Source of the DNA: Candidatus Iainarchaeum sp.
Lineage (GTDB): Archaea; B1Sed10-29; WALL01
DNA: 56,799 nt
Direction of reading: 5' to 3'
Assembly (NCBI GenBank): GCA_021162685.1
Contig: JAGGYF010000027.1
Location: 1 to 56,799 of the forward strand
The notes under the pieces were generated by a model that ran no database searches, had not been told where the DNA came from, and saw only the letters and a program-made list of their open reading frames with translations. Below, in pieces: positions 1,752 through 26,447 of the stretch (its first letter is position 1; each line of letters begins with the position of its first letter). The translations under genes were made by a program, and so were the position numbers.

Positions 1752-2225
1752 ATGAGTGTTATGCGAAAAGGCCAATACTATACTGTTTTCAAATTGCTCC
1801 AAGGGGCGATTATAGCGTCTGTTATGCTGCTCATTGTTTACGGTGTTATCCAGTCATTACATGGGCAGGTACCCTCTTCTGATCCGTTTACTATTAGCGC
1901 GGAGTTGTTGAGCAGTGCGTATGCTGCTGCTGGAACAGGGAAATATTTTACAAAGCAGGCATTGCTTGTTGAGCAGTCATTTGAAGCAGAATCTGTAAGG
2001 GCGAAAGCAGGATTACCATCAGACACCGAGGTAAAATTTGTTTGTAAAAAGCCGTATTGTATTGACCAGTTTGAGATGGTTCCAGTGACTGAGGCAGGTT
2101 CGTGTCAGAGCATACATGATGCTTGCACTGCCATTGGTTTTGAAGCAGGAGATAAGATATGGATATGTGCGAAGTGTGTTAACACCAGGAGATGCTACGT
2201 CTTTTTTGGAGAAAAGGAATGCTAA
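1752..2225 (+). CDS. Pilin-like protein with class-III signal peptide and Cys-rich head (157 aa)
   Basis: MSVMRKGQYYTVFKLLQGAIIASVMLLIVYG carries K-G-Q followed by a hydrophobic helix. The C-terminal half has 8 Cys. Paralogous in layout to 3931-4392. Confidence 0.7.
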   Translation: MSVMRKGQYYTVFKLLQGAIIASVMLLIVYGVIQSLHGQVPSSDPFTISAELLSSAYAAAGTGKYFTKQALLVEQSFEAESVRAKAGLPSDTEVKFVCKKPYCIDQFEMVPVTEAGSCQSIHDACTAIGFEAGDKIWICAKCVNTRRCYVFFGEKEC

Positions 2226-2250
2226 TGTCAGCATACGGGACAAAAATTCC

Positions 2251-2340
2251 AAAATTTTGTTCTATACACAGAACAAAAAATTTATTTTTTCATAGAAATT
2301 ACTGGATATTTATAAAATAAACAAAAATTTTGTTCTACAC
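2251..2340. repeat. Two copies of aaaattttgttcta(ta)cac (2251-2269 and 2324-2340)
   Basis: Read directly from the sequence. The first 14 nt are identical and the copies start 73 nt apart, between the pilin-like gene and the AAA ATPase gene. Confidence 0.6.
2255..2290 (+). terminator. Hairpin plus T-tract downstream of 1752-2225
   Basis: ttttgttct (2255-2263) pairs with agaacaaaa (2270-2278) across a 6-nt loop, followed by aatttatttttt. Confidence 0.35.
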
Positions 2341-2349
2341 GCAGACATA

Positions 2350-2359
2350 TTTAAATATA
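2350..2359 (+). promoter_or_regulatory. TATA-like box for the AAA ATPase gene
   Basis: tttaaatata is centred about 27 nt upstream of the ATG at 2381, consistent with a leaderless archaeal transcript. Confidence 0.35.
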
Positions 2360-2380
2360 GGTTATGACACAAGATAACGC

Positions 2381-3610
2381 ATGGGAGATATGGAGAAGAC
2401 ATTTGAGAGGATAGCAGAAATGTCCAGGCAAAGCCTGGAAAAAGCGAAGAATTTTGAGAAGAGGAGATTTTTGTTCAGTGAGATTATGAGGATAGTACAG
2501 GCAAAAAAGCACCTTATTGTTTTATTGACAGGCATGAGGGGAGCAGGAAAGACTGTGTTAAGTTTGCAGGTTGGGAATAATCTCTTGAGAGAAGGAGAGG
2601 AAGTGCTCTATATTCCAGCAGACCATGTAGCCCTTTCTGACATTTCTCTGTATGACATTGTTAAGCACAGTACAATGCATGGATATACCTATTTCATAGT
2701 TGATGAGATACATTCAAGGCCAGACTGGTCAAAGGAACTGAAGAGCATCTATGATAGTTTGGACGTGTTTGTTCTGGCAACTGGTTCATCCACAGCACTC
2801 TTGAGGAAGGGCAGGTATGATCTATCAAGAAGAGCATTGGAGATCAAGTTACCTGTGATGTCCTATCGTGAGATGGTAAACCTCAGGTTTGACAAGAACA
2901 GGACAGTATTGTCACTTGAGGAGATTCTCAGAGGGTTCAGGAATTTATCCATTAAATACAAGCCATATAGCATAATGGATTATCTGTCGTACTATTCACT
3001 TCCTGTTTCATTAGAATGTACCCCTGATATTGGCAAGGAGCTAATACTCTCAACCATTGAAAAGGTGATATACAAAGACCTACCTGATCTCTACCACTTA
3101 GATGCCGAAACAATCTATGATGCAAAGAAGCTTTTGGTGTATCTATCCTCTATAACACCTGGCGAAACCAGTATATCAAACCTTGCGCAGATGCTAGAGA
3201 ATGTAGGAAAAGGCACTGTAAAGACACTTCTGACAGCATTTTCAGAATTGGGGGTGACATTTGCAGTTCCACCTCATGGAAAGCCAGGAAAGAGACTAAG
3301 AAAGAGTTACAAGGTGTTGATGACTCCTCCATACAGACATATTATTGCTAGGGCAAGGGGATTGGAGCCGTCTATTGGCACGTTGAGGGAAGACTTCTTT
3401 GTTGCGCATGCTTGTCATGCGCACTCTGTAGAATATTTCAAGAGTAAAAGGATGCCAGATTACGTACTAGATGGCAGATACATATTTGAGATTGGCGGCA
3501 GCAAAAAAACAAAACGACAGATAAAAGCGATCAAGGAAGCATATCTTGTTGCAGACACAACATACTCAGAAACAAAGATCCCTCTTCACCTCTTTGGTTA
3601 CTTGTATTAG
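2381..3610 (+). CDS. AAA+ ATPase of the COG1373 type (AAA_14 plus DUF4143-like), 409 aa
   Basis: Walker A GMRGAGKT, Walker B FIVDEIH, then the PDWSKELKSIYD...TGSS pattern typical of this archaeal ATPase family. Confidence 0.8.
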   Translation: MGDMEKTFERIAEMSRQSLEKAKNFEKRRFLFSEIMRIVQAKKHLIVLLTGMRGAGKTVLSLQVGNNLLREGEEVLYIPADHVALSDISLYDIVKHSTMHGYTYFIVDEIHSRPDWSKELKSIYDSLDVFVLATGSSTALLRKGRYDLSRRALEIKLPVMSYREMVNLRFDKNRTVLSLEEILRGFRNLSIKYKPYSIMDYLSYYSLPVSLECTPDIGKELILSTIEKVIYKDLPDLYHLDAETIYDAKKLLVYLSSITPGETSISNLAQMLENVGKGTVKTLLTAFSELGVTFAVPPHGKPGKRLRKSYKVLMTPPYRHIIARARGLEPSIGTLREDFFVAHACHAHSVEYFKSKRMPDYVLDGRYIFEIGGSKKTKRQIKAIKEAYLVADTTYSETKIPLHLFGYLY

Positions 3611-3870
3611 AAGGAATGCTGAATCACATCTATGAAGAACAGAGCCATAGCAGCAAACATCATAATCATTCCAATAGGACCAGATAACAAAAACATTAAA
3701 GCAAATCCCAGCGCAAACAACATTATTGCTATTTTACTTATTTTCACATGCTCTGATTTCTCACCACGCTTTATGTCCTCCTCAACCCTTTTTGATGCCT
3801 CTGTCTGCCCTGGCTCTATCTTTGGCTTTCCGAAAAACACACCCTGAAGTATCCTATCCTCTATCATCAT
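3607..3870 (-). CDS. Small membrane protein (87 aa), unknown function
   Basis: Charged N-terminal half followed by two hydrophobic helices (IAIMLFALGFALMFLL, IGMIMMFAAMALFFI). Convergent with the ATPase gene, with a 4-nt overlap. Confidence 0.45.
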   Translation of the reverse strand: MMIEDRILQGVFFGKPKIEPGQTEASKRVEEDIKRGEKSEHVKISKIAIMLFALGFALMFLLSGPIGMIMMFAAMALFFIDVIQHSF

Positions 3871-3889
3871 TTATTTTTTAGTAGCAACA

Positions 3890-3897
3890 TTTATAAA
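3890..3897 (+). promoter_or_regulatory. TATA-like box upstream of pilin-like gene 3931-4392
   Basis: tttataaa lies about 35-40 nt upstream of the ATG at 3931. A GGTGA SD sits at 3921-3925. Confidence 0.3.
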
Positions 3898-3930
3898 CAA
3901 AAACTGCTATTAGTTGCTCTGGTGAATATC

Positions 3931-4392
3931 ATGCTTAATCAGAAAGGACAGGCATTTGATGCATTTAAGTTGCTTATAGCAGCAGTTGTTGCTGGAGCAA
4001 TTTTAGTAATCCTCCTCTCAATGATTGGAGGATTTATGCCAGTTGGCCAGGACCCATTAACAGTCATGGGCCAGGAGCTGAACAAGGTGAAGAAGGGAGG
4101 TGTTGCAAGTACATCAACAGCAGTTGTGCAGTTCCAGGAAGGTCAAGAGTATACTGCAGATGCTGTTGCACAGGAGGCAGGCATAAACAAGGGCATGGTA
4201 GTGTTCTGCTGTGAAGGAGTAGATGATCCAGATGGCAAGTGTGAGGGCTACATGTTTGATGAACATGAGGATGCATTTGAGTGCAATGGAAAGACACTAA
4301 CGGTTAAACAAAATATCGCAGGAAAGGTAAGGGCTTACTGTCCGATTGGCGAGGGGAAGTGTATCATAGGATTCAAGTTGACAAGGGGCTAA
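3931..4392 (+). CDS. Pilin-like protein with class-III signal peptide and Cys-rich head (153 aa)
   Basis: MLNQKGQAFDAFKLLIAAVVAGAILVILL. The ATG at 3931 is preceded by GGTGA, whereas the track start at 3922 is GTG. The C-terminal half has 6 Cys. Paralogue of 1752-2225. Confidence 0.7.
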   Translation: MLNQKGQAFDAFKLLIAAVVAGAILVILLSMIGGFMPVGQDPLTVMGQELNKVKKGGVASTSTAVVQFQEGQEYTADAVAQEAGINKGMVVFCCEGVDDPDGKCEGYMFDEHEDAFECNGKTLTVKQNIAGKVRAYCPIGEGKCIIGFKLTRG

Positions 4393-4393
4393 G

Positions 4394-4555
4394 ATGCTTT
4401 GGCTTTTCAGGACAATGCTGAACAAGAGGGGGGACGTTAACTGGACCCCCATCTATATCCTCATTCTGGCAGCAATAGCAATCATCCTTTTGATCTCTGT
4501 GATAAAGCCTATGTTCCAAGCAGCTGTGCAGAGTGCATCAAGTGCAGCACCATAA
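4394..4555 (+). CDS. Mini class-III-signal-peptide-like protein (53 aa), not in the ORF track
   Basis: My translation is MLWLFRTMLNKRGDVNWTPIYILILAAIAIILLISVIKPMFQAAVQSASSAAP. It has K-R-G followed by one hydrophobic helix. It starts 2 nt after the stop of the preceding pilin-like gene. Confidence 0.45.
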   Translation: MLWLFRTMLNKRGDVNWTPIYILILAAIAIILLISVIKPMFQAAVQSASSAAP

Positions 4556-4628
4556 ACCAAAACCTTTTAACAATAAGTTTATCTACAAGAACGTATATAC
4601 TTTTTCTGGAATTGTTTAGGGGGGCAAT

Positions 4629-5333
4629 ATGCCAGAACTAAAGAGTCTTGGTGTGAAAGGTATAGATGACCTTCTTGGAGGGGGTATTGCTTCTTCTAGG
4701 GTAATCCTTGTGCAAGCACCACCAGGCTCAGGAAAGTCAACATTGTGCAGACAATTCATATGCGAAGGGATTATAAGGGGCGAGCCAGTTCTCTATGTTG
4801 TAACAGGAGAGCCTATCCAATCTGCGAAGGCAAAGATAAAGGAACATCTCCATAGAGATGAACTTAGAAACGCACTCTTTGTTGACTGCTATTCATGGAG
4901 AATTATGAAAAGACCACCAAGTGAGGAAGGCGTGATAGTGCTTGCATCCTTGGGAGAACTAAATGAGCTTGCAAATATCATAAAAGAGTGGTTGAAAGAT
5001 CATCCTAGTACTAGAATAGTTATTGACTCAATATCAGACTTTCTTTTGTACGGAGAGCCAAAAAGCGTGTTCAAGTTTGTTCAGATATTAAGTGGCCTTG
5101 TGAAAGCAGGTGAGAGCATAGCTCTTATTGCATTAGAAACGGGGTTGCATGAGAAGAGCATTGTTTCCACAATGAACTATCTCACAGATGGCACAATAGA
5201 GATGAAGGTTGAATCAGGTAACAGATACCTGAGGATAGCACGAATGGCAGGTGCCCAGCACCCATTAACATGGGTAATGTTTTCAATGTCTGCAAAGGGT
5301 ATAGAAGTAAGGATTGGCAAGTTCTTTGAATAA
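4629..5333 (+). CDS. KaiC/RecA-superfamily ATPase, ArlH(FlaH)-like (234 aa)
   Basis: GIDDLLGGGIASSRVILVQAPPGSGKSTL (Walker A) and RIVIDSISDF (Walker B). It is a single RecA-like domain of ArlH size. SD aggggg precedes the ATG. Confidence 0.8.
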   Translation: MPELKSLGVKGIDDLLGGGIASSRVILVQAPPGSGKSTLCRQFICEGIIRGEPVLYVVTGEPIQSAKAKIKEHLHRDELRNALFVDCYSWRIMKRPPSEEGVIVLASLGELNELANIIKEWLKDHPSTRIVIDSISDFLLYGEPKSVFKFVQILSGLVKAGESIALIALETGLHEKSIVSTMNYLTDGTIEMKVESGNRYLRIARMAGAQHPLTWVMFSMSAKGIEVRIGKFFE

Positions 5334-5373
5334 AACGAAAATATTATTAATAAGAATCTGTTAACCTAGCAAC

Positions 5374-6159
5374 ATGGATAAAAAGTGGTATCCAATTTTG
5401 ATAACTTTATTGATTGTCTATGCTGTGGGCGCATACTTCATGACAATAAAGCCTTTAATGCCAGAGGTCAAACCACTTGAGAATACATTCCCTCTTTTTG
5501 GTTTATCCTTCCAGGCAACTGTTTTGCTTTTGGGTTGTAGTATTGTGATGTACTATACTTGGTTAAAAGGAGGCAGAAGGAATACAACACATATTATATG
5601 GTGTGCTGCGTTCTTCATATACTCTTTGTTGTTTGTTGGATTAATGCTTCAAGCATTGGGCATTCCATGGGCAAATACCAAGATTCCTTCTATATTTTTC
5701 CTGTGGCGCCAAACGCAAATCATATGGGCAGCATTGGTCTACTATGGGATTGCCCTTATAGTATTTGATGATAACAAGATGATGCGCATAATTCCAACAC
5801 TAGCCATAATAATATTTGGGTATGCTATATTCGCACATGGTCTGCTTGTTGGCCCAAATGATATAGAATGGACAATGTACGGATTCTTACACATGGTCTG
5901 GATTCCTGTAAACATCTTCATTAGTTATCTATTCTACCTATACTGGAAAAGAATCGCACAAACAGCATCAGCATATCTCTCACTAGGATTTGCAGGTATT
6001 GCATTTACATATCTCCTATGGGCACCATGGCATCTAACTAGGTTCTACTTTGTATGCTTTTCATTGTACACTCTATCATTAGTTCCTGTGTTAATAGGCA
6101 TGGTCATGATAAGAAACAGAACAAAGGAGCCCATACTCAGAGATGGCGACATGATATAG
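5374..6159 (+). CDS. Polytopic membrane protein (261 aa, about 7 TM), unknown function
   Basis: Seven or so hydrophobic segments rich in W, Y and F. No recognisable catalytic motif. Confidence 0.65.
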   Translation: MDKKWYPILITLLIVYAVGAYFMTIKPLMPEVKPLENTFPLFGLSFQATVLLLGCSIVMYYTWLKGGRRNTTHIIWCAAFFIYSLLFVGLMLQALGIPWANTKIPSIFFLWRQTQIIWAALVYYGIALIVFDDNKMMRIIPTLAIIIFGYAIFAHGLLVGPNDIEWTMYGFLHMVWIPVNIFISYLFYLYWKRIAQTASAYLSLGFAGIAFTYLLWAPWHLTRFYFVCFSLYTLSLVPVLIGMVMIRNRTKEPILRDGDMI

Positions 6160-6194
6160 TAATCCTTTTAAATCCTTGCTCCTTCTATTTTCTT

Positions 6195-6740
6195 ATGTTA
6201 TATCTCAATAGAAGAGGTCAAGAGGAGGCACCATTCCAGATGCTTTTAGCAGTTGCGATGCTTGCTATGGTTCTGCCTCTTGCAATGTACCTCTTCCAGC
6301 AGTTTCAGGAGTGGGAGTGTAGAGCAAGGGTGCAGAACAACATGGAGACATTTGCTAGGGAGTTAGAACTTGCAGCCACATTAGGTGGAGGCCAAAGGTT
6401 TGTTGATGTTGACCTGAGAACATATGCATGTGGTAATTTTAGAGTTGATAACTTTACACTAGAAAAACCAACACAGGACAGATGCTTAGAGGTTTGTCAT
6501 GAGCCAAACTGCTGGATAATGAGTGCAAAGTATATGGACTATTCTGTTGAGCCACCTGAGGAATCTGTTGCAACAGAGCCTGTTTGCATACGTATTCCTT
6601 TCAATGTTGAGGTAACCACAGACGAGTGTTATGGACAATACGAAAAAGTTGGTGAAGTGATCTCTACAGATTATCACACATTTGTTTTGGAGAAAGTAGG
6701 AAATAAAGTAAGGCTGTGTGAGAAACCGAAGAAAAGGTGA
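6195..6740 (+). CDS. Pilin-like protein, Cys-rich (181 aa)
   Basis: The internal ATG at 6195 gives MLYLNRRGQEEAPFQMLLAVAMLAMVLPLAMYLF (R-G-Q plus a helix). The track start at 6054 overlaps the preceding gene. There are 8 Cys. Confidence 0.6.
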   Translation: MLYLNRRGQEEAPFQMLLAVAMLAMVLPLAMYLFQQFQEWECRARVQNNMETFARELELAATLGGGQRFVDVDLRTYACGNFRVDNFTLEKPTQDRCLEVCHEPNCWIMSAKYMDYSVEPPEESVATEPVCIRIPFNVEVTTDECYGQYEKVGEVISTDYHTFVLEKVGNKVRLCEKPKKR

Positions 6741-6744
6741 ATTC

Positions 6745-7422
6745 ATGAAAAAAGGTTTGGGGATGTGGATTCTCTCAAAAACAGTCATACTCATCTTTCT
6801 TTTCTCTTTGGTTATGATTATGACAATCTTTCTGAAGATATACTCGGATAAGGTTGTCTCAGATACTGCGAGGAGCTATACAACATACTGGTCAGAGGTT
6901 GCAAGCAGCGCGCTATCGTTTGAATCAAGCAGTGATTCTGTTTACTTAGAGCCAGTTATAAGGGTTAGAGAATCACAGAAGCAGTACACAGCGTTTGTTG
7001 TGAAAAGCAAAGGGAGGGAGAACAGAATAACATTCCTTTTGTCATGGGCGCGATTTGATCAGGACAAGGATTACAAGGATTACAAGACAGAGTATAGCAT
7101 GAAATATCTTAAGTCATTTGAGCAAAAATACGGATATGCAGCAGCAAGTGCTTTGAACATGCCAGAAGCAATTGATGAGATTTACTTCTTCAATGTTGTT
7201 CCTGGGAGCGACCCACAAGATCCAGAATATGATGTTATACGCAATGATGAACAACCTCTTATAGCACAGCCATCAAATAATCTTGAACGCGAGACAGACT
7301 TTATCTTCTATAGGAATGAAACAGTATTCTGTGTTGCAACATTGGCAGCAGGGCAGAACATAACAGCAGCCATACGAAAGGTTGGTAGGTGTTGTTATCT
7401 TGGGGTGGAGGGCTGTGATTAA
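6745..7422 (+). CDS. Pilin-like or minor-pilin-like protein (225 aa)
   Basis: The ATG at 6745 gives MKKGLGMWILSKTVILIFLFSLVMIMTIFL. There are 4 Cys near the C-terminus. The gene begins 5 nt after the previous stop. Confidence 0.55.
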   Translation: MKKGLGMWILSKTVILIFLFSLVMIMTIFLKIYSDKVVSDTARSYTTYWSEVASSALSFESSSDSVYLEPVIRVRESQKQYTAFVVKSKGRENRITFLLSWARFDQDKDYKDYKTEYSMKYLKSFEQKYGYAAASALNMPEAIDEIYFFNVVPGSDPQDPEYDVIRNDEQPLIAQPSNNLERETDFIFYRNETVFCVATLAAGQNITAAIRKVGRCCYLGVEGCD

Positions 7423-7939
7423 GGGTTACTTGGGCCCACTAGGTGATGATTTTCCCGCTATCTTTCCTATTGCATTAGGCCTTATGTTCTTTTTTGGTGC
7501 TATTACTATCACATACCAAAACTATGATATGAAGCAAGAGATGACAACACTCATGAGGGCAAATCTCGCATTATCCAAGGCAGTTAGAACACAACTAGAA
7601 TTTGACCCAGAGTTTTGGGAAACAGCATGTAATGTTTTGGAGGATACAAAAGCCAACTATGGTGTCATGGCAAAGATGGGCATTATTGAAGTAAAATATG
7701 TGGAGGATGGAAATTATGAAACAAATCCAGAATATGAGGGTTATGAACTGGAGGAGTATATCTATTATGATGATAATGGCTACCCCAAGACAATCGAACC
7801 ATGCGGCGACCTAATGGAGAAAGGAAAGCCAATACCAAAAGAAAACGATTTTGTTGTTGTAATGTACTATCCTGTAATCATAAAAGAGAGTGGCGTTAAC
7901 AAACCAGTAACATTGGTGATTATGACATGGAAGGCATGA
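7415..7939 (+). CDS. Pilin-like protein, start uncertain (GTG 7415 or TTG 7382)
   Basis: VIKGYLGPLGDDFPAIFPIALGLMFFFGAITITY carries K-G followed by a hydrophobic helix. GTG 7415 overlaps the upstream TAA (GTGATTAA). Confidence 0.5.
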   Translation: MIKGYLGPLGDDFPAIFPIALGLMFFFGAITITYQNYDMKQEMTTLMRANLALSKAVRTQLEFDPEFWETACNVLEDTKANYGVMAKMGIIEVKYVEDGNYETNPEYEGYELEEYIYYDDNGYPKTIEPCGDLMEKGKPIPKENDFVVVMYYPVIIKESGVNKPVTLVIMTWKA

Positions 7940-8517
7940 AGGGACAGGCAGTTGTGATTGATGCAATCTTTTTTATGTTAGTGTGTGGGATGGCTGCCAC
8001 TGCTCTTTTCTGGGCTGGGAGCGTTTATGGAAACAAAACATATGAGGCATATAAGTACATGTACCTAAACGACTATGAGACAAGCATGATTGCAGTATTG
8101 GGTGAGATGTCATACAAGGATGGGGATACTGTGAGGTATTGGATGACTGAACTGGGCGAATACATGAAGGGAACGTTTAATGAAAGCAGCAATCGTTACA
8201 CGTTATTACAGGAGAACTTTCAGAAACTTTGTGTGCAAGCACCTGCGCCTGTGCTTCTGATAGTAAGTTCTCCAACACCTGGAGCAAAAAGAGGGTACTG
8301 CCCATTTGCTGGAGGAAAATGCGAGAAGCTGTACTTTGCATGCGGCAGATTGTTAGATAATACATGGGATCTCTCTCTAAACGAGACCATACAAAACTCA
8401 GATGGCACAACCACATATGTTGTAAACGAGACAAAGTATCCGTACTATTCAAGCCCTGTAACGTCAAAGATGTGTAGTACCCTCAGATGTGAGATGGTTA
8501 CCAAGATATACTACTAG
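7936..8517 (+). CDS. Pilin-like protein, Cys-rich (193 aa)
   Basis: The ATG at 7936 gives MKGQAVVIDAIFFMLVCGMAATALFWAG. ATGA overlap with the upstream stop. There are 6 Cys outside the helix. Confidence 0.6.
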   Translation: MKGQAVVIDAIFFMLVCGMAATALFWAGSVYGNKTYEAYKYMYLNDYETSMIAVLGEMSYKDGDTVRYWMTELGEYMKGTFNESSNRYTLLQENFQKLCVQAPAPVLLIVSSPTPGAKRGYCPFAGGKCEKLYFACGRLLDNTWDLSLNETIQNSDGTTTYVVNETKYPYYSSPVTSKMCSTLRCEMVTKIYY

Positions 8518-8562
8518 CAATACTTTTATATACAACATGATTTTAACTAATGAGTGATAGAG

Positions 8563-9114
8563 ATGGTGAAGATAGCAGATTTTTATAGGCTTATGTCACC
8601 AAAGCTTACAGTATTAGTAACAACTGTGGATGAAAAGGGAAGAGCAGAGGTAAGCCCATTTAGTTTTGTTTGTCCTGTTTCATTTGATCCTCCTCTATTG
8701 GTTTTGGCAGTAGGTCCAAACAAACATAGCTATTGGAATATCACCAGGGTTAAGGAGTTTGTTGTGAACATACCCACAGAGAAGATTTTGGATAAGCTCT
8801 GGATTGCAGGTGGAAAATGGGACCCAGAGGAGAGCAAGATAAAGAAAGCTGGGCTAAAAACAGAACCATCAGAAAAGGTTAAGCCACCAACATTATCAGA
8901 GTGTGCAGCATCCATAGAATGTTATGAGGAAGGGTCCAGAAAGGTAGGAGACCATGTTCTAGTAATAGGAAGGGTTGTTGCTGTAAGAGCAAATGATGAA
9001 TATATTGACCAGAAAGGAAACCTCAGGGTGGATATTGTAAGACCTCCCTTACATGTTGCAGACAATCTATTTGCGTTTCCGTACGTAACAAAAACTGTTG
9101 AGAAAAAGGACTAA
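8563..9114 (+). CDS. Flavin reductase-like FMN-binding domain protein
   Basis: LMSPKLTVLVTTVDEKGRAEVSPFSF is typical of the flavin reductase-like fold. The ATG at 8563 is in frame with the track GTG at 8554. TATA-like ttttatata sits at 8524-8532. Confidence 0.7.
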   Translation: MVKIADFYRLMSPKLTVLVTTVDEKGRAEVSPFSFVCPVSFDPPLLVLAVGPNKHSYWNITRVKEFVVNIPTEKILDKLWIAGGKWDPEESKIKKAGLKTEPSEKVKPPTLSECAASIECYEEGSRKVGDHVLVIGRVVAVRANDEYIDQKGNLRVDIVRPPLHVADNLFAFPYVTKTVEKKD

Positions 9115-10034
9115 CGCAATCGCTCTTCTAATGCACCAATCATTATCGGCAATAAAACAGTTGCATCTCCCTCAACAGTTACTTGTTTGGCATTTTCCTT
9201 TACTTTGCCCCAGGATATTGCTTCCCTTACCCTCGCACCAGAGAGTGAGCCATCCCATTCTGGAGCAGTTGTTATCCCCACAGCGTAATCTAATCCTCCT
9301 CTGAATTGGTTCCACCATATCACGTGGTGTTTTGATATGCCCCCTCCAATCATAAGTGCACCTGTCTTCTTTGCCTCAAACACAATATCAGAGAGATCCT
9401 GCTCATCCCTGAACAAATCTATCCCAAATCTTTTATGGTCCTGCCAATACATCCATAGCTGAGAACCAAATGCACCATCTGTTATGCCAGGAACAAAGAT
9501 AGGTATCTTGTTCTTCCAAGCCCAGTAAACTATGCTATCTTTTGCTCTCTTTTCCTTTGATATCGCCTCTCCAAACAACCATATGAGTTCCTTTGTAGAG
9601 TATTGCCTCTCCTCAATCTTATTGAGAATCCTCTGCATCTTTTTCTCCAAGATTATGCCATAACTCTCATTTGGGACAAACACATTACCAAGGCGATTTA
9701 TTCCTCTTTTGTGTAGTTCCCTATCATCAGCCAAAAATGTCCCATGATAATAGTTTCTCCACAATCTTGCTAGGTCATGGTCTAATGTCCCACATGTTGT
9801 GAGCAAGACATCAAATCGTTTTTTTCTCACAAGTTCTTTTATAATACCCCTCAGTCCAGTAGCAACAACACATGCTGGAAACGACAAGAATTTTGTGCAT
9901 TCCTCCCTTTCCATCTTTTCAAGTATGTCCACTGCTACACCAAGCTTCTTCGCTGTAAATCCCCCAGATGCTTCCATTGCCTTTACCATCTTGTTTGCAT
10001 CGTTTTCAATACGCATATCCTTTATTGCTCTCAT
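9111..10034 (-). CDS. dys: Deoxyhypusine synthase
   Basis: GGGISKHH, EWDGSLSGA and the catalytic-Lys motif EAISWGKV. Confidence 0.9.
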   Translation of the reverse strand: MRAIKDMRIENDANKMVKAMEASGGFTAKKLGVAVDILEKMEREECTKFLSFPACVVATGLRGIIKELVRKKRFDVLLTTCGTLDHDLARLWRNYYHGTFLADDRELHKRGINRLGNVFVPNESYGIILEKKMQRILNKIEERQYSTKELIWLFGEAISKEKRAKDSIVYWAWKNKIPIFVPGITDGAFGSQLWMYWQDHKRFGIDLFRDEQDLSDIVFEAKKTGALMIGGGISKHHVIWWNQFRGGLDYAVGITTAPEWDGSLSGARVREAISWGKVKENAKQVTVEGDATVLLPIMIGALEERLR

Positions 10035-10040
10035 AGAATC

Positions 10041-13000
10041 CTACTCCTTTATCATCCTGACAACAAACAATCCAGTGATTAATGCCACGAGATATACGAC
10101 AAGTTCAATGCCGCTTTCTGGCCTTGTTGGCAATGCTGGCGGAGCAATTTCCTTCTCCTCACCAAACGCCTTTTCTGGCTTGTCTATTGCTGTCGGTTGT
10201 AGCAATGGAGGTTCGGTTCTTCCAGTTATTGGATTAAATCCATTTGTCTTGAAATTGTTGTTTACTTCTACTGGCTGACCGTTCACAAATACATAATTGT
10301 TGTTTGCCTTATCATATTTTATGGCGCCACCACTACCTTTTAGATATGTTACTAGTGCCTCTTCAAGTAGCGTGTTGCCCTTTCCATCCTTTATTGTTAG
10401 CAATGTTCTTCCTAATGAATCAACCTTTGTTTCAATAGTCCTCAATAGATTCGCTTCAACATGTGGTTTGCCCTTTTCGTATACCTTTATGTCTCCAGTC
10501 TTCTCGTCTATCTCTACTTGGTCTGCATCATATATCTCTTTCTTCCCCTTGTAGAACAGTTCAAATTTACTCTTATTTGTCTCTGGGTCTCTATAGAATC
10601 TCCATCCAGCTTTCTCATCGTCCGATATCTCGCCATCTCCATTCAGATCTTTTTCTGCATCAACCCTTGTGATTATACCCAGTTTTTCTCCACCAGGTAT
10701 TCGCGTCACTTTTGCATCCAAACCTAATAGGTTACCTTTTGCATCATAAACCTCCAATGGCTCTCCTGTGTCTGAAACAAATGGAGCGCCACCTGTTGCT
10801 TCAAGCCATCTCTTTCCTGACATTACAGGCATGAAATACTTTGGAAGCACATATATGAGGTTTCCTCTCTTTACAATGGTTCCACCTGTGAATACAGCAC
10901 TCTCAAAGTCATAGAGGTTATTGTTAAACCTGACCTTTCCGTTTGAAAGTACCTCTGCTCCTTCTGTGCTGAATAAGAAGTTTCCATCTATGTTATCCAT
11001 TTCCAACCTGTAGTTTCCATCATAATCTACTGTTGGGTAGATTGCACCCTGTTTTGTCTCAATGACCCTCATCTTCCCAAACATTCTTTCCAGTTCTTGG
11101 AATCCTAGGGATTCAAATTTTGAGACTACACTCGGGTTTATCTTCACCCTCTCTCCTGTATTATCAACACCAACCAATGTACATGAGCCAGCAGCACCTG
11201 TATCCACTGTTACTGCTGTGTTTGGGATGATAATTGCTGGCAATTCTGTGTCCATCCATTTGAATGGCACAAGTTCATCACTGACTATTGTCTTCCCACC
11301 ATACCTCAAATCATTGCCGAGCATTTCCACACACTCTTTGTCAACAGGATTGCCATTCTCATCAAGGTTACATAGGTCAATTGGCAGGTTACTTTCAATC
11401 CATTGTATTGTTGCATCTGATATGTGCGCATAATATATCTCATCAAATGCCATTCTCCCAGATGCATTTTCCATCTCCGTGTGTATGTTAAGTTGCTGTT
11501 GTGTGATCTCTCCTATGGATACATTTTGTAGGCCAGAAGCCTCCAAGAAATCTTTTACAGGGAGTTCTTCAAGTCCTGGTAAGCCCTTCAATGTTTCTGT
11601 CTGCTGCTCTGCTGCCAATACCTCTGGAGATGAATATTGGCCAACACCTATGATAGTAAATGCTTGCTCCTGGCATGTCGCAAGGTCATTTAAGCACTCC
11701 TTTCTCAGCTGCATCTTATACACAGAAAGGGCAAGAGAGCCCAACATAACAGCAGCTCCAGCAGGACCACCAGCAGCCAAGACATACTGCGACATAGTTG
11801 CTCCTGCCAATCCTGCACTCCCCAGGCTTTCTCCCTGCATACATTCTGTAAGCTTGTTATAGCATGAAGGCCTGCCACCAGCACAGTACTCAGATGTTTC
11901 ATTTTCCAAGCTCTTCTTCTCTGCTTCTATGCACTTTGCAAGCTTGTCCATGTCAGTAAGCTCTGATGTCATAAACTCCTTTCCTGCGAGCATCCCATAT
12001 TTTGATGTTGCATACATTCCAAGAGGCATGCCCATTATTGCCAGTGACTTTGATGCAGGAAGTATAGATGTAGGTGTCAGGAACATATGAAATGCACTGG
12101 ACGCAATGAATAGTTTTGAGAACAACCCCCAACTTCCAATTTTCCATACAAATGGGTCTAATACAGTGAACACGCCAGAGAGTTGTGTTTTATCTCCATA
12201 GAGATGTGCATACAAATCAATATCATATGTCCACATGCCCATAGCAGTTAACATCTTCTTCTCTTCACCCTCTGAGCGTTCAGCCATTGTTCTAGGATCC
12301 TCTATTGCAGTAAATTGATGGTTTTCCCAGTTTCTTATCCTAAGTATATAGTATCTTCCATGAGAGGTTTCTTCCTCATCTATCTTTGTCATACCCCTTG
12401 GTTTCTCTTTTTCAACAATAATCACACCAGACCTTGGAGGATACATTACTCCTCCAAACACCAAAACATCACCAAGCGCATTTGCCTTTTGTTGCAGTGG
12501 AACCAAATTCTTGTTAACCTGCCCGACCATATCCATAAACATTGTTCCGAGTTCTCCACCAAGGTAGGACTTTGTTATGCCCCTCACAATAGAATTTGTT
12601 GCCATAATAACAATAACAGAATCATCTTTGAATATGCCAGTATCCTCCTTTGAGTAGTGCAGAGTTAGTCCAGAACCCGTTACCTCAAAGTATCCTTTTC
12701 TGAGGAAATAGTCATTTACGTAATGTAATGCCCTTGCTATCGCAATTGCCTTTGTTCCTATGCCTGTATATATTGTTCTGATAAGTGTATTAAACACGCG
12801 CAAACTAAAGGTTGCTGTTCCCTCTGCAACAGCCCTTTTCACTCTAAGTGTACTTGATGGTTTGAATAATGTTTTAAGGATGCCCCCCTGCTTCTCAACA
12901 AGTCTGGAGAATGACAATGCATTTTTTGCATCCCTTGCTGCTTGAAGTGATGCATATTTTGTGCTTTTCCCTGCTAGTTCTGTTATGTCATCAATCGCAC

Positions 13001-14567
13001 CTGTTACTTGGTGTGCCTTGGCTACCTTTTCAATTGTTGCTGCCAGAAGAGGGTCAGATTTATACACCTTTTCTATGTATGCTTTGTATTGACTTGGACT
13101 CAGATTGTCTATTACTTCTCCAGTCTCCCTCCATATGACCTCACCATTCGCAGTTATTACGGGCCTATACACTGGCACGTTGTCATATTTATCAATCATC
13201 TTCATCCCTGTTTTCATCTCTTCCCACAGTGATTTTGCTTCATCTACTTCCCCTTTCTTAATCAGTTCTGCTATCTCCTTAAATCTGTCCTTAACTGCTG
13301 GTTTCAATGATTCGAAATTTTCGCTTTCCTTCACAAGTGCTTCTCTTCTGGTAACAAGTTTTTTGATATTCTCTGGTACTTTATCGCTTTTGGCCCAATT
13401 TATAGCTTCATCAATACTTACCTGATCTTTTGTTTTTTCTACTGCTGTCGCGTACCTATCTAATAGCGTATCATCTACATACTTTATCTCATCATCAAGT
13501 ATCTTTGAAAGTTCGTCCATATTGTCGGCATAACCGCTGAATTTGCCCGATGTGCTGCTGAGGTATGCTCTCGCTTTTACCAAATCTGATTTTTTGTTTG
13601 ATGTTGTCAAGGTTATTTTGGCTTTCTCAGCTCCATCCCAGACATCATCAATATCATCAGTCATCGTGCTGAGCCTTTCCATCCGTGCAGACCTTGTGAG
13701 CATGTCTCCTTCTGTTTTTCCACCAAACAGCTGTTTGAACTTTCGTAGCAGGCCGCCTTTCTTCACAGACCCTTCATATGCGCCAGCATTTTTGAATACA
13801 GAACCAAGGCCAACAATTGCTATAACCATGTCTGCCATGTCCAGTTTTTTCATCGCTGCTGTGTACATGGTCAATGCCTGTGGTAATATGAATATTGTTG
13901 TACCTGGTCCCCCAGTGGCCATGCTTGTTGTAAACTCTGTTCCCCTTACTCTGCTCTGGCTGAGGTCCATTAAATCACTTGGTAGCAGTTCCTCCTCTGG
14001 CGACAATGAGACGAACGTGCTTATGATATCTGCTTTTGTTTTTGCGCTCCTCAGGCTGTCAATGTACTCCTTTGTTTTGTCCACATCGCCATTGCGCACG
14101 CACACGTTTTTATCAGATGCATTGACAGGGGATTGACCACATATCGCGAGATTCTCTCTCAGATGGCCACCATATTCTATCCTTCCATCTATATTTGTTC
14201 CTATAAGCCAGCCATTATCCTTTTGTAGTCTATCCCCTAGCACCTTATAGTAGAAGACAGGACCATCTGCACCCATAAAATAGAAGTTATAATCATCTGC
14301 AATCTGTTGTTGTTTTGTCTTTTTTTCAATACCAAGCTTTTCTAGTGCTTGCTGTTGCCTGTAATGCTCGGCACTTGTCGCAACATCTTGGGTTACAATA
14401 CCCTGTATTGCTGTTGCCTGATAATAGTTAAGTTCAGTGACATTTAGTGCATTACTTATGTCACAGAAATTATCTTGGTCTTGGGTTTCCTGGGCCATAA
14501 CCCCAAATGGCCAGAAAATGCTCATAAATAGGATAATACTGAAAACGAAGGCCACATATTTTTGCAT
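10041..14567 (-). CDS. Giant membrane-anchored surface protein (1,508 aa), no recognised family
   Basis: The likely start MQKYVAFVFSIILFMSIFWPFGVMAQE is a signal peptide; the track start at 14615 adds 16 aa. A K/E-rich helical region covers roughly aa 330-560. There are three internal hydrophobic clusters. The C-terminal third is beta-rich, followed by a Pro-rich stalk (PPALPTRPESG) and a terminal TM (IELVVYLVALITGLFVVRMIKE). Confidence 0.8.
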   Translation of the reverse strand: MQKYVAFVFSIILFMSIFWPFGVMAQETQDQDNFCDISNALNVTELNYYQATAIQGIVTQDVATSAEHYRQQQALEKLGIEKKTKQQQIADDYNFYFMGADGPVFYYKVLGDRLQKDNGWLIGTNIDGRIEYGGHLRENLAICGQSPVNASDKNVCVRNGDVDKTKEYIDSLRSAKTKADIISTFVSLSPEEELLPSDLMDLSQSRVRGTEFTTSMATGGPGTTIFILPQALTMYTAAMKKLDMADMVIAIVGLGSVFKNAGAYEGSVKKGGLLRKFKQLFGGKTEGDMLTRSARMERLSTMTDDIDDVWDGAEKAKITLTTSNKKSDLVKARAYLSSTSGKFSGYADNMDELSKILDDEIKYVDDTLLDRYATAVEKTKDQVSIDEAINWAKSDKVPENIKKLVTRREALVKESENFESLKPAVKDRFKEIAELIKKGEVDEAKSLWEEMKTGMKMIDKYDNVPVYRPVITANGEVIWRETGEVIDNLSPSQYKAYIEKVYKSDPLLAATIEKVAKAHQVTGAIDDITELAGKSTKYASLQAARDAKNALSFSRLVEKQGGILKTLFKPSSTLRVKRAVAEGTATFSLRVFNTLIRTIYTGIGTKAIAIARALHYVNDYFLRKGYFEVTGSGLTLHYSKEDTGIFKDDSVIVIMATNSIVRGITKSYLGGELGTMFMDMVGQVNKNLVPLQQKANALGDVLVFGGVMYPPRSGVIIVEKEKPRGMTKIDEEETSHGRYYILRIRNWENHQFTAIEDPRTMAERSEGEEKKMLTAMGMWTYDIDLYAHLYGDKTQLSGVFTVLDPFVWKIGSWGLFSKLFIASSAFHMFLTPTSILPASKSLAIMGMPLGMYATSKYGMLAGKEFMTSELTDMDKLAKCIEAEKKSLENETSEYCAGGRPSCYNKLTECMQGESLGSAGLAGATMSQYVLAAGGPAGAAVMLGSLALSVYKMQLRKECLNDLATCQEQAFTIIGVGQYSSPEVLAAEQQTETLKGLPGLEELPVKDFLEASGLQNVSIGEITQQQLNIHTEMENASGRMAFDEIYYAHISDATIQWIESNLPIDLCNLDENGNPVDKECVEMLGNDLRYGGKTIVSDELVPFKWMDTELPAIIIPNTAVTVDTGAAGSCTLVGVDNTGERVKINPSVVSKFESLGFQELERMFGKMRVIETKQGAIYPTVDYDGNYRLEMDNIDGNFLFSTEGAEVLSNGKVRFNNNLYDFESAVFTGGTIVKRGNLIYVLPKYFMPVMSGKRWLEATGGAPFVSDTGEPLEVYDAKGNLLGLDAKVTRIPGGEKLGIITRVDAEKDLNGDGEISDDEKAGWRFYRDPETNKSKFELFYKGKKEIYDADQVEIDEKTGDIKVYEKGKPHVEANLLRTIETKVDSLGRTLLTIKDGKGNTLLEEALVTYLKGSGGAIKYDKANNNYVFVNGQPVEVNNNFKTNGFNPITGRTEPPLLQPTAIDKPEKAFGEEKEIAPPALPTRPESGIELVVYLVALITGLFVVRMIKE

Positions 14568-14624
14568 AGGAATCCCTGCCCTGTAACAATTACACATTAA
14601 AGTATATATAAACATATTGCAGAA

Positions 14625-15083
14625 TTAAAGCACTGGTGGTGCCTCAACAATCCTGAACACAAATATGAGGAGCGCCCAGAATGCCAGGCTTCCTATTAGT
14701 GACATGAGATATTGCATGAGATGCCATGGTAGCATGGGATAACTATCCATGAGTTTGTGATATGCCTGTGACAGAGGGAAGACAAATATAGCAAAGGCAT
14801 ATGTTGCTGGCTCAAAGAACATTGTTAGATATTGCATCTTTATGGAGTGGTAGTACCATAGCTCAAACACAAGGAAGAGGAATGCGAATAACTGGACAAG
14901 GATAAATTGAAGAAAATAGAGAGGAGCCTTAATCTTCTTTATGACCAATGAACTCAATACAGTAGCAATGAATACAGGGATTGAGAACAAGAAGGAGATA
15001 ATGAGCCAGGTCTGACTTATTCCATACTTCGCTACCATCTGGTTCAATATAATCATTAACTCTACTATCATGTTCTCAGCCAT
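14625..15083 (-). CDS. Small membrane protein (152 aa, about 4 TM)
   Basis: Four hydrophobic segments. 8-nt overlap with the upstream PAC2 gene. The giant-protein ORF begins 10 nt downstream at its longest start (14615), or 58 nt downstream at the preferred ATG 14567. Confidence 0.6.
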   Translation of the reverse strand: MAENMIVELMIILNQMVAKYGISQTWLIISFLFSIPVFIATVLSSLVIKKIKAPLYFLQFILVQLFAFLFLVFELWYYHSIKMQYLTMFFEPATYAFAIFVFPLSQAYHKLMDSYPMLPWHLMQYLMSLIGSLAFWALLIFVFRIVEAPPVL

Positions 15084-16742: not shown

Positions 16743-17602
16743 GCCATTATGATTATATCAACTAATGGGAATCCGATAACAGGAATCAAAAGCGCCTGTG
16801 TTGGACTTATCCCTATATCCATAAAGTTAGAACCAACAATGATAAGGGCCTGAAAGAGCGCTGGTAAAAGAACAGAGACAGCTATGAATACCAATGAATA
16901 CATGACAAGTTTTCCACCGAACTCTTTTGCATCTGCATTTTGTTTTCTTACAAGGTCATTTGCAAGGCTTTCAAGGGATTGCGCTGCTTGTTCATCCCCT
17001 CCCTTTTCATAGCACATTTTTAGATGCGTGACTGCCCTCCCCACAATTTTTGAGTCAATGCGGTGCGCAAAATCATCTAATGCATCTTGAACAGGGACAC
17101 CATTTTTTATCTCGTAAACTACTTCTATTATTTCATCAGATAGTTTTCCATACCCCTTACTTACGCTTTCAAGACATATCTCAAATGGAAGATTCATTGA
17201 TAGCTGAGTAGCAACAGTTCTTAGTGCAATGGGCAACTCTTTTTCAATAGCCCCTGTCAATGCATTTTTTCTTATGAATGGATAATAGAAGATAAAAGAT
17301 GAGATAGCAATGGTTATAACAAGTGTAATGAAGAGTATGTTATCGCTATTTGTTGTGATTATGGATAGAGGGGCCAGAAACAGTGGAAACAGGAGGAGTG
17401 ATGCATAAACTATGCTCATCCACTCCTCACCAGTTAATTCCATGCGTGAGAAATACAATGCAGTATCCAACACTCTCAATAGCTTTTCTGGTGTCTTTTT
17501 TGATAGTGGGCTGAATACATGATGTATTACTTTAATCGTGTTTATCACCAAAGTTAAATGAGTATATTTGTTTGACAACATCGCTGAATGAGCCTTCAAC
17601 AC
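16709..17602 (-). CDS. Type II secretion system F (TadB/ArlJ-half-like) platform protein, single domain
   Basis: ELPIALRTVATQLSMNLPFEICL...NGVPVQDALDDFA...RAVTHLKMCYEKGGD...LESLANDL followed by TM helices. The start is uncertain because the longest ORF overlaps the ATPase gene by 71 nt. Confidence 0.75.
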   Translation of the reverse strand: MLKAHSAMLSNKYTHLTLVINTIKVIHHVFSPLSKKTPEKLLRVLDTALYFSRMELTGEEWMSIVYASLLLFPLFLAPLSIITTNSDNILFITLVITIAISSFIFYYPFIRKNALTGAIEKELPIALRTVATQLSMNLPFEICLESVSKGYGKLSDEIIEVVYEIKNGVPVQDALDDFAHRIDSKIVGRAVTHLKMCYEKGGDEQAAQSLESLANDLVRKQNADAKEFGGKLVMYSLVFIAVSVLLPALFQALIIVGSNFMDIGISPTQALLIPVIGFPLVDIIIMAWIRMRRPACI

Positions 17603-22265: not shown

Positions 22266-23479
22266 GTCTCACCCATTGATGATATGAAGTATATTCTTTC
22301 AGCATATACATGTGGTGTTTTTACAGTTTCAGCATTTGTTATGTTTAGGTTTGTGTTTCCAGATGTGCTGACATAGAATGGTATCCCATTATAGGTCTGC
22401 GAGCTTTCTGAGTACCATCCAGTATATCCACAGTTTTCTCCGAATACATCTGTGTGGAAAATATTGAAGGATATGTAGTTCTCTGATAATGCTACATAGT
22501 CTTGGTATGGTTCACTAAGCACAGTAATATCTTTTGTAGTTTCTGCATAGTATCTATGCTCAACAGCAGTAAGGGTCATATTTCCAGTTATTTCGTTGGT
22601 ATCAATTGTAAAGTTCCCCCCAAAAGTACCAGATGATGTATCTCCTTGTGAGCCATAGCTAGTGGCTCTCCCAATAGCATTTGTAACATCAAGATTAACA
22701 ATAGTATCAAATGATGTTCCGTTTGAATATCTCAAAAATACCTTGTACCTTACCATCTCTCCTCTAACAAACATGTCCTGTGGAAACCAGTTGCTATCAT
22801 ATGTTTTGATAGTGATGTTCACGCTATATACACGTAAATTTTTTTTTAGTGTGCCATTGAGTTTTATACTCCATGTTCCTTGCGTGTCTGTTGATGCTAT
22901 GCTGAACGAACCATCAGCATGCCAGTTACTCAATGTCTCATTTTTTGTGTATTTCAGATTTCCGTTGGGGTCATATACACTTATGTTTACAAGGTCTGTG
23001 TCGTTTCCTGTTATTCTGTAATATACCGTGCTTCCCAGTGGAAATGCATCATTCTCATAGGCCAAGAGGTTATCCTCATAGGTGGACACCGCATAAGGCA
23101 CAGTATAATCGTAGCTCATTGTCTTTTCTATAGTGGTGTCTGTGGAGTTTATACGTAGTGTACAATTCACATGGAATTGATTCCCACTTTGGCTTTCATC
23201 ACATGTTATATTTGAGGCGTATCCCAGTGAGTTTAAAGTTGTGTTCATATCCTGTATCACATTGGTTATAGCATTACTATCTCCATCATATATCTTGCTC
23301 TCTAATGCCCAGCTGAGTTCGTTTGCATATTGCTCTGCTATATTGTGCGCTAATGGGCTCTCCATGACTTTTAGCTCAGTTTGTTTTGCTTGGCTTGTGT
23401 AATATGCTATCCCAACCACTATTGTAATCATCAAAACTGCTGTTATGAGGAAGAACTGCCCCTTCTTATTCAATACCAT
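22262..23479 (-). CDS. Large pilin-like protein (405 aa) with class-III signal peptide
   Basis: MVLNKKGQFFLITAVLMITIVVGIAYY. The body is beta-rich and sequon-rich. ATGA overlap with the LamG gene. Confidence 0.7.
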   Translation of the reverse strand: MVLNKKGQFFLITAVLMITIVVGIAYYTSQAKQTELKVMESPLAHNIAEQYANELSWALESKIYDGDSNAITNVIQDMNTTLNSLGYASNITCDESQSGNQFHVNCTLRINSTDTTIEKTMSYDYTVPYAVSTYEDNLLAYENDAFPLGSTVYYRITGNDTDLVNISVYDPNGNLKYTKNETLSNWHADGSFSIASTDTQGTWSIKLNGTLKKNLRVYSVNITIKTYDSNWFPQDMFVRGEMVRYKVFLRYSNGTSFDTIVNLDVTNAIGRATSYGSQGDTSSGTFGGNFTIDTNEITGNMTLTAVEHRYYAETTKDITVLSEPYQDYVALSENYISFNIFHTDVFGENCGYTGWYSESSQTYNGIPFYVSTSGNTNLNITNAETVKTPHVYAERIYFISSMGET

Positions 23480-25555: not shown

Positions 25556-25556
25556 A

Positions 25557-26444: not shown

Positions 26445-26447
26445 ACC

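Follow-up and report, generated by a model that had tools for sequence, protein, structure and literature searches.

We analysed a 56,799-nucleotide stretch of DNA from Candidatus Iainarchaeum sp. (contig JAGGYF010000027.1, in the following the window), which carries on its minus strand, at 10041..14567, the coding sequence of a giant surface protein of 1,508 amino acids plus stop. The protein belongs to an unannotated family that is restricted to the Diapherotrites (Iainarchaeota) and Micrarchaeota, with full-length relatives in about 14 members of clade A, the clade of the window protein, and in at least five of a second one, clade B. Our best explanation, which we hold tentatively and with a little less than even confidence, is that the giant is exported by Sec, anchored at its C-terminus and probably processed by an archaeosortase, and that it serves a type IV pilus-like apparatus of these two phyla as the large component that is not a pilin. 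It builds on the genes that surround the giant, on the conserved organisation of its C-terminus and on an enzyme gene found in the loci of its relatives.

Pilus-like neighbourhood, C-terminal tail and archaeosortase

Partner genes were mapped by tblastn in ten independent loci of both clades. In nine out of nine informative loci (the window, L001, L003, L005, L006, L007, L008, L010 and L011) the giant gene adjoins the same five minor-pilin-like genes, and genes for a platform protein (about 700 amino acids) and an ATPase (about 765 amino acids) come next where the contig reaches them. The corresponding type IV pilus-like accessory cluster of the window lies on the plus strand at 1752..8517 and holds orthologues of seven pilin-like genes of L005 (40-75% identity in tblastn); class-III-type N-termini are visible in the pilin-like proteins of L005 and L006. 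In L001, L005 and L008 the giant gene and the cluster point in the same direction. Relative orientation varies by locus, and the window block consisting of a 152-amino-acid gene, the giant, deoxyhypusine synthase and flavin reductase is inverted relative to L005. The pilus neighbourhood is kept despite such inversions and across two clades that are about 16% identical.

The C-terminus of the giant shows a tripartite organisation. A Pro-rich stalk (residues 1451-1485; 10113..10217, minus strand) with nine Pro within residues 1451-1483 ends in the putative sorting motif LPTRP (residues 1479-1483; 10119-10133), and is followed by a transmembrane helix with a basic tail, GIELVVYLVALITGLFVV-RMIKE (10044..10112, minus strand; Kyte-Doolittle hydropathy (KD) 2.25, Hessa sum about +1), so that the whole tail reads LPTRP-ES-GIELVVYLVALITGLFVV-RMIKE. 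Across both clades P1480 is invariant and P1483 is conserved in at least 90% of the sequences. All of the 11 members examined end in [LV]Pxx[P/E/D], with the transmembrane helix 3-6 residues further on and then a basic cluster, and no other open reading frame (ORF) in the fetched loci carries the same tail. Such a tripartite layout is described for sortase-type C-terminal signals (10.1101/2023.06.07.544157; PMC11980579).

Moreover, a gene for an archaeosortase-family membrane protein of 171-192 amino acids is located directly upstream of the giant in L003 and beside the pilus ATPase in L005, L006 and L007, hence in four of the four loci that extend past the pilus ATPase. The four proteins pass the NCBIfam model exo_archaeo TIGR04178 with 34-46 bits (cutoff 23) and stay below the cutoffs of the named subtypes, with 20-27 versus 80 bits for pacearchaeosortase and 23-33 versus 150 bits for ArtB. 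The 192-amino-acid ORF of L003 had been considered as a homologue of the 152-amino-acid gene of the window; this was ruled out, as it encodes the archaeosortase-family protein instead. Because a tripartite tail and an unclassified archaeosortase occur together in related loci, we propose a new enzyme-signal pairing, in which a dedicated, unclassified archaeosortase probably recognises the tail. A further ORF of L003, coding for 741 amino acids without a Pfam match (7112-9337, minus strand), lies between the pilus ATPase and the archaeosortase-like gene and was seen in this locus only.

According to our explanation, the protein would be exported by Sec and its signal peptide, recognisable by its sequence features, would be removed. 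The whole ectodomain would then lie outside the cell, with the conserved Cys presumably paired in disulfides, and the tail, whose motif, helix and basic cluster are plain from the alignment, would hold the protein at the cell's own membrane. An archaeosortase from the conserved locus may cut the tail and re-anchor the protein. The gene neighbourhood suggests that the giant could act together with the adjacent pilus-like system, made up of five minor-pilin-like proteins, platform and ATPase, as an adhesin or an envelope anchor.

Gene, family and domain anatomy

From its first ATG, the minus-strand ORF covers 10041-14615 and would encode 1,524 amino acids, whereas translation from the ATG at 14567 (MQKYVAF...) gives 1,508 and the window's own gene call (P0001), with the start placed at Met15, gives 1,494. 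A TATA-box-like element, TTTATATA, can be read from the sequence at 14605..14612 (minus strand), 45 nt 5' of the ATG at 14567; it falls into the 57-nt gap between the upstream gene and the giant ORF and also inside the 48-nt ORF extension, and may serve as a promoter element. We consider the start at 14567 to be correct, because all homologues align from this Met and the box lies in the extension. The longer start was rejected, since the extension contains the TATA box and the homologues give no match there. The gene itself is real, as full-length homologues with 34-57% identity occur in other metagenome-assembled genomes.

A word-indexed search of 5.8 billion proteins returned seven full-length homologues beyond the window's own gene call, and word-indexed profile searches added no further members. 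The named homologues are hypothetical proteins whose sources are given as Candidatus Diapherotrites archaeon or as 'archaeon'. An exhaustive hidden Markov model (HMM) search, in which a profile of residues 570-1508 was run against 1.84 billion cluster representatives, gave 19 hits at E<=1e-3, about 11 of them clade-A proteins or fragments. Clade B (P0020, P0021, P0023 and P0025) is about 16% identical to the window protein, and its members have 1,342-1,432 amino acids when complete. Like the proteins of clade A, they combine a signal peptide and an N-domain with a helical region that varies, the hydrophobic hairpins, a conserved motif containing Cys (YYIHFKDADIRWFQGP.CNID.C), a conserved C-terminal block and a tail of the same type. 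In a scan of species-representative genomes we found a clade-B member in a Candidatus Micrarchaeota archaeon (locus L006). The window DNA matches hydrothermal-vent metagenomes.

Searches of Pfam, NCBIfam and PDB sequences gave nothing above noise for the protein alone, for 11 members scanned singly or for the family profile, and thus no homology to a known enzyme or S-layer family. All that came up was coiled-coil noise on the variable region and a PPR repeat below the threshold. An earlier note on this DNA, made from the sequence alone, had described the protein as an orphan without recognisable motif. The second part agrees with our searches; the first holds in the sense that there is no annotated family, but the protein has about 20 relatives and so forms part of a small conserved family.

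The layout given in the same note was largely recovered when we delimited the domains. The protein of about 160 kDa has 12 Cys and an ectodomain with an isoelectric point (pI) of 5.2. It begins with the claimed signal peptide, which is of the Sec type (residues 1-25; 14493..14567, minus strand; KD 2.27, Hessa sum about 0), with cleavage predicted at a conserved site between VMA and QE; P20 and A25 are invariant in clade A. The conserved N-terminal domain (residues 26-215; 13923..14492, minus strand) shows 30-60% identity per 50-residue block within clade A, and the columns of its Cys (C35, C143 and C156) are kept in 15-16 of 19 sequences. The K/E/D-rich helical region is present as well, at residues 266-582 (12822..13772, minus strand); it measures about 317 amino acids and not the suggested 230 or so. 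With about 10% identity within clade A, against 45-80% for the remainder of the protein, and a length range of 205-523 amino acids it is hypervariable, and it is probably an exposed, fast-evolving part of the protein. The matches of the profile to the PDB were coiled coils and helical bundles only, all of them on this region.

Two strongly amphipathic helices (residues 586-623, hydrophobic moment 0.43-0.52) open the segment of residues 583-803 (12159..12821, minus strand; 37-46% identity within clade A), followed by a conserved core that contains beta structure according to DSSP of low-confidence models. Over residues 601-1000 the core is 27-52% identical within clade A. The C-terminal ectodomain (residues 966-1450; 10218..11672, minus strand), including a C1066-x12-C1079 loop, is more strongly conserved (48-80%), and its membrane-proximal residues 1351-1450 form the best-conserved block of the protein; a self-comparison with hhalign gave no internal repeats. 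It contains an EF-hand-like loop of 12 residues, DLNGDGEISDDE (residues 1307-1318; 10614..10649, minus strand), in which D1307, N1309, G1310, G1312 and E1318 were invariant in the first clade-A alignment of eight sequences. The loop, which is absent from clade B, could bind Ca2+ to judge from its motif. That the C-terminal third is rich in beta structure, as had been proposed, is supported by DSSP of AlphaFold models; the Pro-rich stalk and the C-terminal anchor described above had likewise been predicted correctly.

These models cover residues 570-1508 and were obtained in two AlphaFold2 runs, the first using 8 sequences and the second 18. The regions of about 1130-1230 and 1250-1410, both of beta structure, are the only ones to reach a predicted local distance difference test score (pLDDT) of 60-87. 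Foldseek, run twice against the PDB and against BFVD, gave no match at E<=1e-3, with template modelling scores (TM-scores) of at most 0.23, and at most 0.13 over more than 100 columns. Weak matches to beta-propeller, Rhs and tail-fibre proteins were disregarded. The absent fold match is a weak negative, because the models are poor.

Hydrophobic hairpins and rival readings

The internal hydrophobic clusters noticed earlier are present at residues 216-262, 804-867 and 910-957 (KD 1.1-1.7), and each of them belongs to a hairpin. Hairpin 1 (residues 216-262; 13782..13922, minus strand) has the form GPGTTIFILPQALTMYTAAM-KKLDMAD-MVIAIVGLGSVF, with M239, K240, L242 and D246 invariant in clade A, Hessa sums of +7.8 and +8.4 for its arms and a hydrophobic moment of 0.09-0.18. 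Hairpin 2 (residues 804-867; 11967..12158, minus strand) reads WGLFSKLFIASSAFHMFL-TPTSILPAS-KSLAIMGMPLGMYATSKYGML and is more hydrophobic in clade B, where KD reaches 2.03 and the Hessa sum is +2.6. Both AlphaFold runs gave a helix-turn-helix for hairpin 2 (804-829/837-867) and for the third hairpin (902-930/934-964), at pLDDT 25-57.

Hairpin 3 (residues 902-965; 11673..11864, minus strand) is distinguished by its Cys pattern. C902 and C909 are located on arm 1, G933-G934-P935 form the turn, and C958 and C965 are located on arm 2; the arrangement C902-x6-C909 and C958-x6-C965 is found in 14 of 14 clade-A members (spacing 7 and 7). The pairs 902/965 and 909/958 have a common midpoint at 933.5, on the turn. 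Since the Cys spacing is symmetric about the GGP turn, an antiparallel helical hairpin with two inter-arm disulfides is expected, and hairpin 3 would thus be stapled at its base. C902 and C965 are invariant in both clades. Clade B keeps the outer pair only, about 70 residues apart; in P0021 of this clade a further pair lies inside it, with the centre unchanged. The arms have 23 residues, and the hydrophobic tip, with about 17 residues per arm, is rich in Gly and Ala. The claim of the earlier note that Cys pairs flank the clusters therefore applies precisely to the last cluster, and not to the others.

We compared these segments with the membrane segments of the same proteins by a crude sum of the biological hydrophobicity scale of Hessa over 19-residue windows. 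In all members, signal peptide and C-terminal anchor give values of -1 to +3 kcal/mol, compared with +2 to +12 kcal/mol, mostly +5 to +10, for the six internal arms; the hydropathy of the signal peptide and the C-terminal transmembrane helix is far above that of every internal segment. Because of this difference the clusters are unlikely to be autonomous transmembrane helices. The clade-A arms contain Lys, His, Asp or Gln. On the Eisenberg scale the arms have a hydrophobicity of 0.33-0.52 and a moment of 0.09-0.18, and 40-60% of their residues are Gly, Ala, Ser or Thr. With a moment of about 0.1 and this share of small residues they are also unlike ordinary amphipathic helices of soluble domains. 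We regard the clusters as conserved structural elements that are unlikely to act as autonomous stop-transfer helices; they could be a packed or oligomeric core, a module at the membrane surface, true transmembrane hairpins of a tight bundle or latent inserting elements. Within our preferred explanation they would most likely pack into a hydrophobic core of helices, serve for oligomerisation or lie embedded in the membrane surface.

Several observations weigh against the explanation that we prefer. The AlphaFold2 models are of low confidence, with a mean pLDDT of 40 (8 sequences) and 50 (18 sequences), and of 25-57 over the hairpins. No NCBIfam CTERM model matched, neither with the whole protein (E<=0.1) nor with isolated 60-residue tails (E<=1), and a plain transmembrane anchor that undergoes no processing would be equally compatible with the tail. 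In the 56.8-kb window tblastn found no archaeosortase gene, and the window also lacks the ATPase of about 765 amino acids and the platform of the pilus operon in question. The conserved neighbours also include genes with housekeeping roles (deoxyhypusine synthase, flavin reductase and PAC2), so that some of the synteny may go back to plain inheritance of gene order instead of a functional coupling. RNA runs holding the giant gene were looked for and none were found. Finally, N-glycosylation sequons are not enriched (7 observed versus 8.3 +/- 2.3 expected), by which we ruled out sequon enrichment as a sign of an S-layer glycoprotein.

Among the alternatives, the one that fares best, although we consider it unlikely, takes the hairpins as true transmembrane hairpins in the cell's own membrane, where six helices together with the C-terminal one would form a base, channel or stator for the pilus. 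The topology would be self-consistent, as every hairpin returns the chain to the same side and all Cys-rich and large domains come to lie outside the cell. Six helices without a polar face (moment about 0.1) are hard to bury in a soluble domain, hairpin 2 of clade B is transmembrane-like by the values given above, and the conserved KK in the turn of hairpin 1 fits the positive-inside rule. Gly-zipper-like small-xxx-small motifs are typical of tightly packed transmembrane bundles, which also speaks for this possibility. However, most clade-A arms reach +5 to +11 in the crude Hessa sum and carry Lys, His, Asp or Gln. In hairpin 1, no more than about 12 residues of the second arm are apolar, and the AlphaFold helices of 26-31 residues are of low confidence.

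Activity on a host membrane, which the earlier note had brought up, appears quite unlikely to us. Here the Gly/Ala-rich hairpins, especially the stapled hairpin 3, would insert into the membrane of a partner cell in order to tether, fuse or perforate it; hairpin 3 would play the part of an internal fusion loop or of a pore-former hairpin, and the pilus would perhaps position the protein. Some viral fusogens and colicin-type pore formers are characterised by disulfide-flanked internal fusion loops and by hydrophobic helical hairpins that are buried. In agreement with this, the hairpins are conserved in both clades although they are below the threshold of co-translational insertion, and they are non-amphipathic and rich in small residues, with 11 small-xxx-small motifs in hairpin 3. 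The 23-residue arms of hairpin 3, predicted to be stapled at the base, would be long enough to span a bilayer, and a hypervariable, probably exposed region is present. Micrarchaeota live attached to a host as episymbionts, and presumably employ pili and surface proteins where the two cells meet (PMC5498576). However, neither the PDB nor BFVD gave a sequence or fold match to a fusogen or pore former, a weak negative, given that the hairpin models stay below pLDDT 57 and a match could be missed. Furthermore, no relatives were found in viral contigs, and the window contains a geranylgeranyl-reductase-type gene. No obligate episymbionts are known among the Diapherotrites, and nothing in our data addresses a host or points to a host membrane. 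Positive evidence comes from the surrounding genes, and it favours a pilus-linked surface protein of the sortase type, a possibility that the earlier note had not raised. More improbable still is the most far-reaching version, according to which episymbiotic Micrarchaeota and Diapherotrites would use the family as their long-sought device for contact or for bridging membranes, positioned by the pilus and tethered by the sortase, whose hairpins insert into the partner membrane and whose hypervariable region sets the specificity.

It is also improbable that the giant is the main or a second S-layer lattice protein, held by its C-terminal transmembrane anchor and without a specific tie to the pilus. 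Its signal peptide, large acidic ectodomain (see pI and mass above), Pro-rich stalk and C-terminal transmembrane helix correspond to the layout of several archaeal S-layer proteins, and the EF-hand-like loop, if it binds Ca2+, would fit as well. Moreover, comparable proteins of pilus loci have been termed 'S-layer-like' by Makarova et al. (PMC4858521). Yet neither the window protein nor any of the 11 family members scanned matched TIGR01564, TIGR01567 or any other S-layer model of NCBIfam or Pfam. In the Micrarchaeota, which carry clade B, an abundant S-layer protein from another family has already been identified (10.1101/2021.04.28.441871), and the S-layer assignment is weakened by this. The 12 Cys, the lack of sequon enrichment and the rarity of the family, with the 19 hits reported above, speak against it too. 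What probability remains falls to a generic surface protein whose synteny with the pilus genes is merely coincidental.

Adjacent genes and side observations

The giant gene is part of an array of about 20 kb on the same strand that is rich in surface and pilus genes. Along the minus strand, one T2SSE ATPase gene and a pair of T2SSF genes come first. MG2 and LamG proteins and DUF192 follow, and after them another T2SSE ATPase, this one fused to two 4Fe-4S domains, together with a further pair of T2SSF genes. The array then runs through PAC2, the 152-amino-acid multi-transmembrane gene, the giant and deoxyhypusine synthase.

Directly upstream of the giant lies the gene for the small multi-transmembrane protein of 152 amino acids (14625..15083, minus strand), for which Pfam and NCBIfam gave no match. 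Homologues with 39-44% identity occupy the position directly upstream of the giant in L001 and L005, and weaker ones do so in L007 and L011. Overall, a small multi-transmembrane ORF of 142-164 amino acids precedes the giant in the window, L001 (8709-9137), L005 (9519-9947), L006 (8847-9287), L007 (8706-9200) and L011; its clade-A motif is FFEPATY...P.LPWH.M. The protein may be a membrane partner or chaperone of the giant. The clade-B loci have in addition a Cys-rich protein of about 256 amino acids before the giant (L006 9179-9955, L007 9234-10004), with a signal peptide, a C-terminal transmembrane helix and a very basic tail, whose gene overlaps the start of the giant in L007 and is absent from the clade-A loci.

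On the other side, deoxyhypusine synthase (9111..10034, minus strand) starts 6 nt past the stop of the giant, with a GGAG within the giant's last codons. The order giant-deoxyhypusine synthase is found in both clades (L001, L003, L005, L007, L009 and L011), and the two genes are probably co-transcribed; the enzyme is a housekeeping protein outside the surface apparatus. The tight coupling of the gene for a housekeeping, translation-factor-modifying enzyme to that of a surface protein is striking.

Within the pilin-like cluster of the window, genes for an AAA_14 ATPase (2381-3610) and a KaiC-like ATPase (4629-5333) are inserted on the plus strand, which have no counterparts between the pilin-like genes of L005. 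The array includes a T2SSE/FlaI-type ATPase with an N-terminal fusion of two 4Fe-4S ferredoxin domains (17532-19223, minus strand), followed by two T2SSF genes and PAC2. It is unusual for a pilus or secretion ATPase to carry an iron-sulfur domain. Counterparts of this arrangement occur in L001 (20756-22420), L003 (20324-21952), L005 (18859-20508) and L006 (2844-4556), that is, in Diapherotrites as well as Micrarchaeota. Downstream of a second T2SSE/T2SSF cluster (24338-28385) are the genes for a LamG_3 protein of 799 amino acids with a weak TafC fimbrial match (19866-22265) and an MG2-domain protein (22262-23479), both on the minus strand. The counterpart region of L005 is 20872-24659, where the LamG/DUF2341 protein is given as 4,101 amino acids. 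Together, these surface proteins correspond to the adhesins of PilY-like type that have been proposed in archaeal clade 1 pili. Far from the array, at 52282-53284 (minus strand), HEPN/PaREP1-like and Pol-beta-type nucleotidyltransferase genes form a toxin-antitoxin-like pair, which resembles the MNT-HEPN module reported as conserved in DPANN archaea.

Significance and comparison with known systems

The molecular basis by which DPANN archaea build their envelope, attach to other cells and exchange with them is largely unknown. Our data provide defined targets, namely an unannotated family conserved across two DPANN phyla that keeps a fixed position beside a single type IV pilus-like gene set, an archaeosortase and an [LV]PxxP-CTERM-like signal that probably form a new pair, and an unusual twin-Cx6C hydrophobic hairpin, predicted to be stapled. 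If the hairpins are membrane-active, the family would be a candidate for a cell-cell bridging machinery; if they are not, it would still represent a new archaeal surface or pilus component and a new class of sortase substrate. Neither the family nor its putative [LV]PxxP-type signal is described in the libraries and the literature that we searched, and the same applies to the unclassified archaeosortase and to the twin-Cx6C hairpin.

In layout, hairpin 3 resembles two kinds of known elements, to neither of which a sequence or fold match was found. In the CHCH twin Cx9C fold, two equally spaced Cys pairs likewise sit on an antiparallel helix-turn-helix; the spacing in hairpin 3 is Cx6C rather than Cx9C, the context is extracellular and archaeal, and the disulfides are expected from the Cys pattern. 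The hydrophobic tip, rich in small residues and of bilayer-spanning length, is reminiscent of the internal fusion loops of class I viral proteins and of colicin-type hairpins.

PilY1/PilC, a bacterial non-pilin adhesin, is like the giant a large Sec-exported protein, encoded beside about five minor pilins and with a beta-rich C-terminal region. PilY1 has an EF-hand-like DxNxDG loop, for which the motif at residues 1307-1318 would be the counterpart. However, the giant has no match to the PilY1 beta-propeller or to DUF2341 in Pfam and no detectable blade repeats, and the propeller-like Foldseek matches are non-significant (E>=0.04, TM-score <=0.13), so that it is not a member of the PilY1 family; it also has a C-terminal transmembrane anchor, which PilY1 does not. 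The PilY-like DUF2341/LamG proteins proposed by Makarova et al. are found in the other pilus cluster of these genomes.

The substrates of archaeosortases, such as the S-layer glycoprotein of Haloferax volcanii (PGF-CTERM, ArtA), have a Sec signal, a large ectodomain and a tripartite tail as well. Related loci carry a gene of the exosortase/archaeosortase family near the giant. The motif of the giant is [LV]Pxx[P/E/D] and not PGF, PEF or VPXXXP, no CTERM model matched it, and the locus differs in what appears to be a pairing of one enzyme with one substrate in a pilus locus, the window itself having no gene for the enzyme. For archaeal type IV pilus loci, Makarova et al. (2016, PMC4858521) described large 'S-layer-like' proteins with a C-terminal transmembrane helix in the clade 4 systems of Thermoproteales, and later mentioned 'specific surface proteins' in generic terms for DPANN pilus loci (2019, PMC6393860); our preferred explanation is in line with both. 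Compared with these by their description, the giant is likewise large and secreted, has a C-terminal transmembrane helix and multiple conserved Cys, is encoded among pilin, TadC-like and ATPase genes and has its function deduced from context; the predicted stapled hairpins and the link to an archaeosortase are undescribed for them. In its general type the giant is nothing new, since archaeal surface proteins that are encoded in pilus loci and end in an anchor of the sorting type are a known kind.

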